From IMG/VR virus record IMGVR_UViG_2585427776_000006: a stretch of 5,817 nucleotides of DNA; one strand, 5' to 3'. This DNA is from a virus (Duplodnaviria > Heunggongvirae > Uroviricota > Caudoviricetes). This document shows, piece by piece, positions 2,814 through 5,696 of the stretch (position 1 is the first letter of the stretch; each line of letters opens with the position of its first letter). The position numbers were made by a program, and so were the translations under genes. The notes under the pieces were generated by a model, which was not told the origin of the DNA, made no database searches, and saw nothing but the letters and a program-made list of their open reading frames with translations.

Positions 2814-3020
2814 TTAGTGATTCAGGCCGTTACCGCGTCCGTCGAGAAAAACTTCCACGAGCAAATCACGGGTATAAGTGCGCTCGATGCCGCGATGCAG
2901 ATATAGCCGTCCGCGTAAATTAGCTGATGCAGTCCAGGTACCATCTTTGTGTTTGACCAGCATTCCTGGCATGACCGCACCTCGATTAACGGTCTGCGTT
3001 CCGTAATGTTGATGAACCAT
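2814..3020 (-). CDS. Hypothetical 68-aa early protein in the Kil position upstream of gam ([68 protein letters not shown])
   Basis: The track ORF 2814..3095 begins at a non-ATG codon (TTG). I place the start at the internal ATG 3020..3018, which has an AGGAG SD 5 nt upstream. Function assigned by position only; the sequence is not recognised. Confidence 0.5.
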
Positions 3021-3156
3021 AAAAACTCCTGCCCGTAAGCTGGGCTGCTGAACATATAGAGACTTCTGCGCGTATTTCGACGTATGGGGAAACAAGTGTG
3101 ATTCGCCAACCGTATCATTAAGCCCGGCCCGAGTTACTGATGTTTATTCTTAAAAG

Positions 3157-3165
3157 AATTAACTG
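3157..3165. repeat. Left copy of the 9-bp direct repeat AATTAACTG flanking the AT-rich cassette (extended imperfect repeat TTCTT-N5-AATTAACTG begins at 3147)
   Basis: Exact 9-mer also present at 5026-5034. Both copies are preceded by TTCTT and a 5-nt spacer. Confidence 0.4.
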
Positions 3166-3192
3166 AAAAGAGGAAGGTTTGATGAGTTTTTT

Positions 3193-3210
3193 TACGTGAA
3201 TTAACACGTA
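3193..3210. promoter_or_regulatory. Palindrome TACGTG-AATTAA-CACGTA (6-bp arms, 6-bp spacer), candidate operator in the divergent intergenic region
   Basis: Perfect inverted repeat read directly from the sequence. Lies between the divergent Kil-position gene and the cassette promoter. Confidence 0.3.
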
Positions 3211-3306
3211 AGACTGCTGGTTATTAAACCATCACATTAGATATCTAAAAATTGTGATCGGTATCTCCCTACTATAAAAAAAAGTAGTTGAATATACGGT
3301 CTATAC

Positions 3307-3334
3307 TTGAAATAAATAAAAGTATTCTTATTTT
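3307..3334 (+). promoter_or_regulatory. Candidate sigma70 promoter for the cassette: -35 TTGAAA (3307-3312), 16-bp spacer, -10 TATTTT (3329-3334)
   Basis: Hexamers and spacing read from the sequence about 30 bp upstream of the gene A start. Other weaker combinations exist in this AT-rich region, so the exact promoter is uncertain. Confidence 0.3.
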
Positions 3335-3353
3335 TTAGATTCTGTGTTGTGAA

Positions 3354-3358
3354 AAGGA
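3354..3358 (+). promoter_or_regulatory. Ribosome-binding site AAGGA for the 343-aa ORF
   Basis: AAGGA lies 6 nt upstream of the ATG at 3365. Confidence 0.5.
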
Positions 3359-3364
3359 ATTTTT

Positions 3365-4396
3365 ATGTCCTCGAATATTTTATCTGGTGAAAAAGTAATC
3401 AATAAAATTGCTGAAAAGTTGAGCGATTATAAATATCCTCCGGCTGAAGGTATGAACTCTGAACATGTCAGCAAATGGATTAAGCAATTTGCAGTGGAGG
3501 ATAGACGATTTATCTTAGATGAAACGCTTTATCTACTTAATGCAGGTTACCTATCCGAAAGTCAATATCAACGAAAAATAAAAGCCATTGCAAGAAGTGA
3601 AAAGAACGCGAAACTCTTCAGATATGCAGGTTTTTTAGATATTCAAAAAAAAGGTTCTAGTCAGAAGGAATTGCTTAAATCTCTTTATGAAACAGTAGGG
3701 ATCAAATTTAACATCGTTACTGAATCATCAACTCAAGATGAAGTAAATAAATTTGATACATTTGTATATATTGATGATGTGTCGTTTTCAGGAGAAAAGG
3801 CCATCAAATCGATAAGTAATTTTGTTTTAAAATTTAATTTAAGAGATATTAAATTCAATGTATATTTTTTTTCATCTCATACGTTATCTGACTATAATAT
3901 AAAAAGACGATTAGAATATATTTTTAAGGATAGAAACATTTTTGTACACGTGAAGAATGGTGGTATGCGTGAGGTTGAAAACCGAAAAAGTCGTTCTGCT
4001 CAATCAGGTGTTTTCTGGCCAAGGAAATATAGTGTAGATACTCCCGAGAAATTCGAGGAGTGTGAGCTTTACAAAGGCGTATTCAGAGATGGATATGCCT
4101 CTTCTGATAGTTTTAGAAATGAAGCCTCAAGGGATCGTTTCGAATCTATCCTTACTAAAGTCGGCTTTAATATCTTGCTGCACAGGAAAACCCCTAGTGA
4201 GGTGCTCAAACCTCTAGGTTTTTCTACTTTTGACGGTTTGGGTTTTGGGGGAACAACATTTACTTATCGAAATTGCCCGAATAATGTGCCGCTGGCTTTT
4301 TGGTGGGGAGATTATGAACCAACAGGTGCTCCCGCATTGGACTGCTGGTATCCACTAATGAAGCGGAATGGGTATAATGAGTGGTATGAGCTATAG
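3365..4396 (+). CDS. Uncharacterised 343-aa protein, candidate toxin/effector of the cassette. Contains a phosphoribosyltransferase-like loop motif FVYIDDVSFSGEK (residues 133-145)
   Basis: Long ORF with a good SD and AT-rich codon usage distinct from the phage genes. The motif (four hydrophobics, DD, then V-S-F-S-G) resembles the PRPP-binding signature of type I PRTases (for example VLLVDDVLTTGGT), but that resemblance is my inference from a single short motif. No homolog recognised. Overlaps the downstream NADAR gene. Confidence 0.75.
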   Translation: MSSNILSGEKVINKIAEKLSDYKYPPAEGMNSEHVSKWIKQFAVEDRRFILDETLYLLNAGYLSESQYQRKIKAIARSEKNAKLFRYAGFLDIQKKGSSQKELLKSLYETVGIKFNIVTESSTQDEVNKFDTFVYIDDVSFSGEKAIKSISNFVLKFNLRDIKFNVYFFSSHTLSDYNIKRRLEYIFKDRNIFVHVKNGGMREVENRKSRSAQSGVFWPRKYSVDTPEKFEECELYKGVFRDGYASSDSFRNEASRDRFESILTKVGFNILLHRKTPSEVLKPLGFSTFDGLGFGGTTFTYRNCPNNVPLAFWWGDYEPTGAPALDCWYPLMKRNGYNEWYEL

Positions 4397-4997
4397 ATTA
4401 TATCCGCTACAGAACACAGTTTCCTTCAGGAAAACCACCGAAAAATGGGGGGGGCTTTCCAACATGGCTAAAGGATATCCATTGTTAATCAATGGGTTGC
4501 CTATTCAATCAAGTGAAATCCTTTACCAAGCATGCCGATATCCAGACTATCCGGATATACAAAAGGCCATCATTACTCAAGGAAACCCCTATGAAGCCAA
4601 GCAGACCGCAAGATCGTTTGAATCCAAAACTCGCGCAGGATGGGATAAGAATCGAGTTTCGATTATGAAGTGGTGTGTATGCGTAAAATTATGCCAGAAC
4701 TGGGATACGTTCTTTGCGCTGTTAGACAGTACAGGCGACCATTTCATCGTGGAACACTCAGAGAAGGACCAATTCTGGGGTGCCAGTAAAGACCCAGAAG
4801 GTAACTATTATGGTATGAACGTATTAGGGCGAATTCTCATGGACGTGAGAGGGGTTGCTAGGAAAAAGGGGGCTGATGGGTTTGCAACAATACCATCGCT
4901 ATCTTTGGACAAATTTTTTCTCCTAGGCGAAAGAATTAAAGATGTAACATTTGTAGAGCCAACGCCTGGAGCAGGGCAAAGTTTATCCTTGTTTTAG
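4368..4997 (+). CDS. NADAR (YbiA-like, DUF1768) domain protein, predicted ADP-ribosyl / N-glycoside hydrolase and candidate antitoxin or immunity partner
   Basis: Translation carries the NADAR signature blocks as I recall them from E. coli YbiA: GGLSNM (YbiA GDFSNF), SSEILYQACRY (YbiA TSEHYFQAQKF), IVEHSEKDQFWGAS (YbiA LVEHTENDAYWGDG) and NVLGRILMDVR (YbiA NRLGYLLMELR). Three in-frame ATGs (4368, 4377, 4386) all lie inside the end of the upstream gene, so the exact start is uncertain. Confidence 0.85.
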   Translation: MGIMSGMSYRLYPLQNTVSFRKTTEKWGGLSNMAKGYPLLINGLPIQSSEILYQACRYPDYPDIQKAIITQGNPYEAKQTARSFESKTRAGWDKNRVSIMKWCVCVKLCQNWDTFFALLDSTGDHFIVEHSEKDQFWGASKDPEGNYYGMNVLGRILMDVRGVARKKGADGFATIPSLSLDKFFLLGERIKDVTFVEPTPGAGQSLSLF

Positions 4998-5025
4998 CGT
5001 TCCATCTGGGGCATTTTCTTCCATA

Positions 5026-5369: not shown

Positions 5370-5696
5370 ATGACTAAAAATACTCGTTTTTCCCCCGAAG
5401 TCCGTCAACGGGCAGTCCGTATGGTTCTGGAAAGTCAGAGCGAATATGACTCACAATGGGCGACAATTTGTTCCATTGCTCCAAAGATTGGCTGTACGCC
5501 GGAGACTCTGCGTGTCTGGGTTCGCCAGCATGAGCGGGATACCGGGGGCGGTGATGGAGGGCTCACCACCGCTGAACGTCAGCGTCTGAAAGAGCTGGAA
5601 CGTGAAAATCGTGAACTGCGCCGCAGTAACGATATCCTTCGCCAGGCTTCCGCTTATTTTGCGAAGGCGGAGTTCGACCGCCTCTGGAAAAAATGA
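5370..5696 (+). CDS. IS3-family transposase OrfA (helix-turn-helix DNA-binding part), 108 aa
   Basis: Translation [60 protein letters not shown]...[36 protein letters not shown], with the leucine-zipper-like C-terminus typical of IS3 OrfA. AGAGG SD upstream. Confidence 0.9.

Follow-up and report, generated by a model that had tools for sequence, protein, structure and literature searches.

A prophage-borne copy of the two-gene anti-phage system DS-32: obligate pairing of a PRTase-CE protein with a YbiA-type NADAR and a possible phosphoribosylation mechanism

The 5,817-nucleotide stretch from IMG/VR virus record IMGVR_UViG_2585427776_000006 (the window, which denotes this whole stretch throughout) contains a 343-residue open reading frame (ORF) extending from ATG to stop at 3365-4396 on the plus strand, and its end is overlapped by a gene of the NADAR family. 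The question raised by this locus is what the protein is, and what it does together with a NADAR hydrolase. A first-pass annotation, made from the letters alone, positioned the 343-residue ORF correctly and recognised a NADAR downstream of it; it described the 343-residue protein as unrecognised and belonging to no family, and proposed a defence effector related to the retron-associated phosphoribosyltransferases (PRTases) whose product the NADAR would reverse in a toxin-antitoxin arrangement. It is virtually certain that the ORF is DS-32A and that with the overlapping NADAR gene, DS-32B, it constitutes DS-32, a prophage-borne two-gene anti-phage system validated in E. coli. We regard the annotation of the locus as settled, as a copy of that published system.

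DS-32A matches Pfam PF24390 PRTase-CE across all of the profile (positions 1-253 of 253; 2.2e-38, 133 bits with a cutoff of 27), the NCBIfam equivalog NF053875.1 (DS32_1 phosphoribosyltransferase-like anti-phage protein) across the full model (residues 12-334; 310.5 bits with a cutoff of 250, E 1.3e-92), PHROG 8525 (3e-221), and the PADLOC retron PRTase_III-A model (residues 10-334; 1.5e-10). It is identical at 342 of 343 positions to WP_000097610.1, the validated DS-32A, with L84 here in place of F84 at a variable position, and the view that no family could be recognised is thus replaced. DS-32B is a 203-residue ORF at 4386-4997 (+) that matches Pfam NADAR (5.7e-23, 82 bits with a cutoff of 35) and the NCBIfam equivalog NF053876.1 (DS32_2 NADAR family anti-phage protein; 257.4 bits with a cutoff of 240, E 4.2e-77); it is one residue different from WP_032260665.1, the validated partner, and identical to WP_024167494.1. 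The adjacency, common strand and A-before-B order of DS-32 are all present in the window. The longest possible NADAR ORF starts at 4368 and encodes 209 residues, and the likely start is instead the third in-frame ATG at 4386, which is backed by RefSeq and by the family model. This ATG overlaps the last 11 nt of the DS-32A ORF, an arrangement that suggests translational coupling, and DS-32B is probably coupled to DS-32A in this way.

The system was described by DeWeirdt et al. (DefensePredictor; bioRxiv 10.1101/2025.01.08.631726; Science 2026, PMC13092281), in which WP_000097610.1 and WP_032260665.1 of an E. coli isolate were cloned together as 'NADR' and named DS-32. The reported values of -log10 efficiency of plating (EOP) for this clone are 3.7 for Bas26, 1.6 for RB69, 0.9 for SECphi18, 0.6 for T5 and 0 for Bas67 (Table S7, PMC13092281), such that a clone nearly identical to the pair in the window protects approximately 5000-fold against Bas26 and 40-fold against RB69. 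The preprint noted that DS-32B is structurally like the NADAR antitoxin DarG1 and that DS-32A is unlike DarT, and it already proposed toxin-antitoxin "partner swapping" relative to DarTG, of which one sentence is left in the final paper. The toxin-antitoxin logic of the first-pass annotation is the same as that put forward earlier by these authors; the system and the toxin-antitoxin idea are therefore already published, but the mechanism is not.

An AlphaFold2 model of DS-32A was generated from an alignment of 40 homologs with 29-76% identity (predicted local distance difference test score 91.7; predicted template modeling score 0.90). In the model, residues ~1-88 form a helical N-terminal domain and ~89-204 the type I PRTase core, and 205-337 make up the conserved domain that carries the C-terminal signature. 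The core is a five-stranded parallel alpha/beta fold superposable on solved PRTase structures, and Foldseek matches the model to XGPRT and HPRT (E ~1e-4), with template modeling scores of ~0.48 on the target but just 0.23 on the query. The PRTase core is confined to the central ~140 residues, and neither the N-terminal helical domain nor the C-terminal ~135 residues matched a solved structure in the fold search. All of the fold matches are PRTases and none is an ADP-ribosyltransferase (ART). The earlier proposal had been made to depend on a PRTase or ART-like fold, and it is the PRTase core that is found in the model and by Foldseek.

The segment FVYIDDVSFSGEK, which starts at nt 3761, had been picked out by eye in the first-pass annotation as resembling a loop that binds phosphoribosyl pyrophosphate (PRPP), and it is very probably a genuine, if divergent, PRPP loop. 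The loop (3761..3802, plus strand; codons F133-VYIDDVSFSGEK-A146) holds the acidic pair D137/D138, as originally numbered, and both residues are 100% invariant in a set of 115 unique homologs, drawn from genomes and from viral contigs, that extends down to ~26% identity, with S/T142 and G143 nearly so. Within FVYIDDVSFSG the DD and S/T-G elements stand at the offsets expected of a PRPP loop, and in the model the DD motif is located at the junction of strand 132-140, loop, and helix 144-157, which is PRPP-loop geometry. A search of the PDB with the family profile found no solved member of the family and returned PyrR PRTases alone, with a score insignificant by itself (E ~1) but aligned exactly at the PRPP loop (VILVDDVLYTGRT versus fvYlDDvlfsGer). 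The resemblance is far beyond chance and holds up in conservation, geometry, fold and the PyrR alignment, although not in the strict sense of PROSITE PS00103, whose regular expression is unmatched, and it is for this reason that we call the loop divergent. A second loop, Q94-K-K-G97-S-S99-Q100 (3644..3664, plus strand), follows strand 89-92, the first core strand of the model, and its residues Q94, G97, S99 and Q100 (Q94-x2-G97-x-S99-Q100) are invariant in the same 115 homologs; by analogy with type I PRTases it is a candidate pyrophosphate-binding (PPi) loop.

The C-terminal domain carries a family-specific signature (4214..4369, plus strand; codons L284-GF...GLGFGG...YRNCPNNVPLAFWWG...WYPLMKR-N335), in which G285, G293, G295, N303, N306, P309, W313, W328, P330 and R334 are invariant among the 115 homologs. 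The segment G291...P305-N-N-V-P309 fits the 'G-x14-PNN-x-P' motif, which was defined for retron PRTase-like effectors including Retron-Eco11 (PMC12746101), and PADLOC retron PRTase_III-A models match residues 291-337. The suspected kinship with retron-associated PRTase effectors is thus borne out both by the full-length PADLOC match and by the common PNNxP signature. In Retron-Eco11, mutation of the PRPP motif abolishes defence, and activation of the effector lowers cellular PRPP by approximately 50% (PMC12746101). Given these data and the invariant DD and QxxGxSQ loops, it is very probable that DS-32A, as a member of the retron-type clade, is catalytically active and uses PRPP. We also considered whether DS-32A is itself part of a retron, and rejected this: there is no reverse transcriptase-like ORF in the window, and the partner in all 80 genome loci described below is a NADAR. 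With neither a reverse transcriptase (RT) nor a noncoding RNA (ncRNA), DS-32 is not a retron, although its effector lineage is common with retron type III-A.

Among solved structures, DS-32B is best matched by E. coli YbiA (2b3w; 2e-11), with the SE..YQ and VEH..D..WG motifs aligned, whereas the DarT-associated type of NADAR structure, 8bau, scores only 0.07. The catalytic motifs E44/Y47/Q48 and I121-V122-E123-H...D128..W131-G132 are invariant in 80 partner NADARs with 37-88% identity. NADAR subfamilies are distinguished by a residue in the last strand, which is Glu in YbiA and Asp in BC4488 (PMC11125620); DS-32B has the Glu of the YbiA subfamily, not Asp or His. All NADARs assayed so far strip ADP-ribose off guanine in DNA, and NADARs serve as antitoxins to DarT1 and YarT (PMC11125620). 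YbiA also cleaves the phosphoribosylamino N-glycosidic bonds of riboflavin intermediates, according to the summary of Frelin et al. 2015 given in PMC11125620 and to the NCBIfam TIGR02464 match, and a bond of this type would arise if a PRTase acted on an exocyclic amine. In E. coli K-12, ybiA lies in a LexA-controlled operon with ybiB, whose product binds DNA and has a different, TrpD2-type phosphoribosyltransferase-like fold (PMC11125620); this second, independent association of a NADAR with a PRT-like protein and DNA may merit comparison.

PRTase-CE is a small family with a wide distribution. When one genome per species was scanned with a degenerate pattern, relatives turned up in 304 of 185,579 species belonging to many phyla, and an exhaustive hidden Markov model search yielded 1,227 PRTase-CE cluster representatives among 1.84 billion proteins. 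Neighborhoods were compared in 80 fetched genome loci and 46 viral contigs. In 80/80 genome loci the next gene downstream, on the same strand, is a NADAR, and its ORF usually overlaps the PRTase-CE stop codon or directly adjoins it; together with the invariant catalytic residues this obligate pairing upholds the earlier picture of a defence effector matched to a NADAR. The NADAR is kept in 40 of the 46 viral contigs; in one it is truncated by the contig end, and the other five encode distant, longer PRTase-CE variants without a NADAR, neighbored by SduA_C, RES and PD-(D/E)XK genes. Two of these variants, L119 (2154-6191) and L122 (548-2104), have PRTase-CE proteins of 404 and 518 residues that keep a Y-x-DD-G-L-Y-T-G loop, while their C-terminal signature reads NISNT instead of RNCPNN. 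The genes immediately ahead of PRTase-CE in L119 encode an SduA_C (Shedu-like) nuclease, a RES-domain protein and a PD-(D/E)XK protein. No alternative eraser (macrodomain or ARH) was found beside PRTase-CE homologs, the partner being a NADAR or, in the five distant viral loci, nothing recognisable. In addition, one protein (P0228) is a single-chain PRTase-CE::NADAR fusion.

These observations bear on whether the two genes are simply coincidental prophage cargo, with a stand-alone anti-defence NADAR, directed for example at a host DarTG1 as in T4-like phages, sitting beside a PRTase-like moron. Orphan phage NADARs that neutralise DarTG1 do exist (PMC11257639), and the window is a prophage. However, the same order and strand recur in all 80 chromosomal loci from many phyla and in 40 of 46 viral loci, the two activities are fused directly in P0228, NCBIfam provides paired equivalog models, and the genes were cloned together in the clone that protects (PMC13092281), making this explanation extremely improbable. 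On the co-occurrence data and the fusion, we rejected DS-32B as an independent anti-DarTG prophage gene.

The most informative comparative result is the architecture of the NADAR partner. Among the 80 genome loci it is a short NADAR only in 53, is fused to a full HsdS with two target recognition domains in 18, to a DUF1156 DNA methylase (HmaB) in five, and to a ComEA-like helix-hairpin-helix (HhH) in three, with one other extension. The HsdS fusions lie in Type I restriction-modification (R-M) operons ordered hsdM - PRTase-CE - NADAR::hsdS - hsdR, as in L062 (1891-12074) and also in L015, L020, L021, L026, L029, L035, L036, L051, L055, L058, L060, L063, L071, L077 and L080. A separate hsdS is not among the recurrent neighbors, so the fusion may be the sole S subunit. 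The order in Hma-type loci is hmaA - PRTase-CE - NADAR::hmaB - hmaC (L072, 2505-10771; L041, L053, L031), where HmaA is an SNF2 helicase with NOV_C, HmaB a DUF1156 DNA adenine methylase, and HmaC a DUF499 ATPase. The pair has thus been captured alike by two unrelated restriction-type systems, with the hydrolase tethered to the subunit that recognises or modifies DNA. The NADARs with a C-terminal ComEA-like HhH (HHH_3) DNA-binding module are from Dehalococcoidia/Chloroflexota (L064, 6983-7939; L075, 6855-7913; L052).

A different departure from the simple pair is seen in Enterobacter (L002, 6001-9671; L128-L131), in which the order is A-A'-B. A PRTase-CE gene whose product is 76% identical to that in the window is followed by a NADAR remnant interrupted by an in-frame stop, by a piece of MT-A70, by a second PRTase-CE 50% identical to the first, and then by a single intact NADAR. 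The tandem is present on all 24 of the Enterobacter contigs read, and an intact PRTase-CE copy without an intact NADAR of its own is tolerated there only beside a second complete pair. Two PRTase-CE paralogues served by one NADAR would fit the reversal of a common product. In the literature searched we found no account of the obligate pairing, of the PRTase-CE::NADAR, NADAR::HsdS, NADAR::HmaB and NADAR::HhH fusions, or of the A-A'-B tandems; 'PRTase-CE' was not found there by name, NADAR together with HsdS returned strain genotypes only, and the Aravind survey of virus NAD and ADP-ribose systems does not describe a PRTase-CE/NADAR pair. The pairing counts, these four kinds of fusion and the tandems are new in this analysis.

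What, then, might the pair do? Our favored answer, a tentative one to which we would give somewhat less than an even chance, is that DS-32A phosphoribosylates a DNA base from PRPP and DS-32B erases the mark, as a PRPP-driven analogue of DarTG1. Infection would activate DS-32A, acting as a PRPP-using transferase of the retron-type PRTase-CE clade, to move the 5-phosphoribose of PRPP onto a nucleobase nitrogen in DNA; the most plausible acceptor is an exocyclic amine, for instance N2 of guanine. Replication or transcription would then be blocked by the bulky N-glycosidic adduct, in a chemistry parallel to that of DarT1 but with PRPP instead of NAD+ as the donor. DS-32B, a member of the YbiA-type NADAR family with phosphoribosylamino-pyrimidines and ADP-ribosyl-guanine in DNA as its known substrates, would hydrolyse the adduct bond and keep the DNA of the host free of the mark up to the point at which infection shifts the balance. 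Where the eraser is built into an R-M or Hma DNA-recognition or methylase subunit, as in about a third of the lineages, it may be placed directly on DNA, or the pair may be coupled to the integrity of the restriction complex. A DNA base as the target is suggested by the fusions of NADAR to DNA modules, the activity of NADARs on DNA, the phosphoribosylamino specificity of YbiA and the tandems with a shared eraser; that the NADAR reverses the DS-32A product is what we infer from its obligate presence beside PRTase-CE, its intact catalytic residues and the existence of an A::B fusion. Identity, fold, motif conservation, pairing and fusions are what the analysis shows directly, and PRPP as donor, DNA as acceptor, toxicity, reversal and the trigger are predictions. 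The fuller claim, that DS-32A is the first known enzyme to mark a base of DNA (or RNA) with 5-phosphoribose taken from PRPP, with the NADAR as its dedicated eraser and that eraser incorporated into R-M or Hma subunits in about a third of lineages, is possible, if rather doubtful.

Several observations weigh against a DNA mark of this kind. The published work on DS-32 comprises protection and structure comparison only, and no biochemical or toxicity data on DS-32A were found in the literature searched. A DNA-recognition module is absent from two thirds of the NADAR partners, including that in the window; the pI of DS-32A is 9.0 and the homolog median is 6.4, values that are uninformative about nucleic-acid binding. 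A guard-type coupling to the restriction complex, as in PrrC/EcoprrI, could account for the HsdS and HmaB fusions instead. DS-32B is nearer to metabolic YbiA than to the DarT-associated NADAR by the scores given above, and the characterised defence PRTases act on metabolism, not DNA, with Retron-Eco11 linked to PRPP depletion (PMC12746101) and ShosT to disrupted purine metabolism (PMC11961720). Lastly, the strict PS00103 pattern is unmatched, and the fold matches include 5vog, a ppGpp-binding PRTase-like protein, a reminder that PRTase folds can be non-catalytic ligand sensors.

The metabolic precedents can be accommodated in two ways. In the first, unlikely but deserving of weight, both proteins are co-effectors in a futile cycle that drains PRPP once activated: DS-32A would phosphoribosylate an acceptor base and DS-32B would hydrolyse the bond and regenerate the acceptor, with a net reaction of PRPP + H2O -> ribose-5-phosphate + PPi and starvation of the phage for nucleotides. 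The strict gene order, the overlapping genes and the PRTase-CE::NADAR fusion fit enzymes of one pathway at fixed stoichiometry, and the closeness of DS-32B to metabolic YbiA also favors this reading, but the repeated fusion of NADAR to HsdS, DNA methylase and HhH DNA-binding modules is left unexplained. Moreover, retron PRTase effectors lower PRPP without a NADAR partner (PMC12746101), so that the hydrolase is not needed; PRTase-CE variants lacking a NADAR exist; and NADARs are antidotes in every characterised pair (PMC11125620).

The second, which we consider unlikely to about the same degree, is a metabolite toxin with an enzymatic antidote, in which DS-32A makes an aberrant toxic nucleotide from PRPP or drains a base or nucleotide pool and nucleic acids are unmodified. 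The DNA-module fusions of NADAR are equally hard to explain on these terms, and the invariant, aromatic- and arginine-rich C-terminal domain seems far larger than the 'hood' that a free base would call for. On the other hand, the physiological substrates of YbiA are soluble phosphoribosylamino-pyrimidines, two diverged PRTase-CE paralogues with one NADAR are compatible with a diffusible common product, and both ShosT (PMC11961720) and Retron-Eco11 (PMC12746101) offer precedents.

A third alternative has the roles reversed: the PRTase-like protein would be a non-catalytic sensor or regulator that binds PRPP, (p)ppGpp or a nucleotide derived from the phage, and the NADAR would act as effector by cleaving an N-glycosidic bond that is essential. 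PRTase-fold regulators such as PyrR and PurR exist, a ppGpp-bound protein is among the fold matches, and the PRPP loop of DS-32A is non-canonical, but neither the acidic pair nor the PPi-like loop varies at all among the homologs, and in the sister retron clade PRPP is consumed and a PRPP-motif mutant loses defence (PMC12746101). The domain architectures of PRTase-CE proteins bear on the same point: N-terminal modules joined to PRTase-CE itself include leucine-rich repeats (LRR; P0234), Sel1 (P0161), an FGE-sulfatase (P0214) and a nucleoside-deoxyribosyltransferase-like domain (P0248), an arrangement expected of sensor-effector proteins; the first three are sensor-type modules, which leaves PRTase-CE in the usual effector position. 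Every characterised NADAR, in turn, is an eraser or antidote (PMC11125620), and we judge the reversed roles to be very unlikely.

If phosphoribosylation of a DNA base by DS-32A and its removal by DS-32B prove to be correct, the system would be a PRPP-dependent counterpart to DNA ADP-ribosylation and a new class of reversible nucleic-acid modification. It would also explain the action of retron type III-A effectors, and provide a physiological substrate class for NADARs outside DarT operons. In the embedded loci it would amount to a second erasable 'self/non-self' layer on the restriction complex, or to a guard that is triggered once the complex has been disabled by phage anti-restriction proteins. 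The pairing, the fusions and the A-A'-B tandems make the chemistry of DS-32 directly testable and point to the homologs to use.

Within the window, DS-32A is preceded by an AAGGA ribosome-binding site ~8 nt ahead of its ATG and by an AT-rich spacer with a weak sigma-70-like promoter candidate (3307..3334, plus strand; 9/12 in a consensus scan). The scan found no more sites than in shuffled sequence, so this stays a candidate and no promoter is claimed. A terminator-like hairpin from a consensus scan lies directly 3' of the DS-32B stop codon (4999..5022, plus strand), and is weak, with a short stem of three GC pairs. The GC content is 35.7% in DS-32A, 43.8% in DS-32B, 32% in the upstream spacer and 51% in the left recombination module, and these steps inside one operon (3077-4997) suggest a foreign origin and possibly separate histories of both genes.

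The 5.8-kb window belongs to a lambdoid prophage. Its left portion, transcribed on the minus strand, encodes a Dam-type methylase (266-823), lambda exonuclease (974-1654), Bet (1651-2436), Gam (2442-2738; Pfam Gam 3e-65) and an intact kil (2814-3020). At ~nt 3076 kil is joined to the remaining tail of a pseudogene for an MT-A70 methylase, beyond which comes the DS-32 cassette. To the right, an IS3-family (IS1203-like) element from ~5316, with transposase orfA (HTH_Tnp_1) at 5370-5696, disrupts a gene that is ybcN in intact prophages. In 19 complete E. coli genomes the DS-32 cassette occupies the nin region, behind replication gene P, and the kil/MT-A70 junction (~3076) was seen in 0 of 5,426 complete E. 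coli genomes. With kil abutting a nin-region cassette, the whole immunity and replication region is missing from the window and the prophage is rearranged.

Compared with the published DS-32, the pair in the window is alike in gene order, overlap, E. coli host and prophage setting; the surroundings differ, the published cassette lying in an intact nin region and that in the window abutting kil and the IS3-family element. With the retron type III-A PRTase-like effectors (Retron-Eco11, PMC12746101) DS-32A has in common full-length homology, the PRPP loop, the PNNxP signature and an anti-phage role, but DS-32 has no reverse transcriptase, ncRNA, multicopy single-stranded DNA (msDNA) or winged helix-turn-helix tail, and the restraining partner would be a NADAR enzyme rather than an RT-msDNA complex. 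ShosTA is likewise a two-gene defence system with a PRTase-domain toxin, but the antitoxin ShosA is DprA-like and not a hydrolase, and ShosT is reported to disrupt purine metabolism (PMC11961720); ShosT was detected by no profile in our analysis of DS-32A. E. coli YbiA (COG3236) has the catalytic motifs of DS-32B and acts on substrates with 5-phosphoribosyl on an exocyclic amine, but it is a stand-alone housekeeping enzyme, whereas DS-32B has an extra C-terminal segment of ~45 residues and an obligate PRTase-CE partner.

DarTG1 and YarT-YbiA resemble DS-32 in being two-gene anti-phage operons with the NADAR second; in them the toxin gene comes first and the NADAR is an antidote that cleaves a ribosyl-N-base bond on DNA. 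The first gene of DS-32 encodes a PRTase fold, not an ART, and DS-32B is of the YbiA rather than the BC4488 subfamily, with toxicity and reversal in DS-32 as predictions by analogy. Because the fold is that of a PRTase, the donor should be PRPP and not NAD+, and the adduct phosphoribose and not ADP-ribose; lacking an ART fold, DS-32 is not a member of the DarTG family, although it may work analogously. The pairs that lie between hsdM and hsdR in 18 of the 80 lineages, with a presumed restraining component joined to the R-M complex, resemble PrrC, an anticodon nuclease held latent by EcoprrI. In contrast to PrrC-EcoprrI, the pair in the E. coli window is free-standing, its embedded homologs have the partner covalently fused to HsdS or HmaB, and the chemistry of the effector differs.

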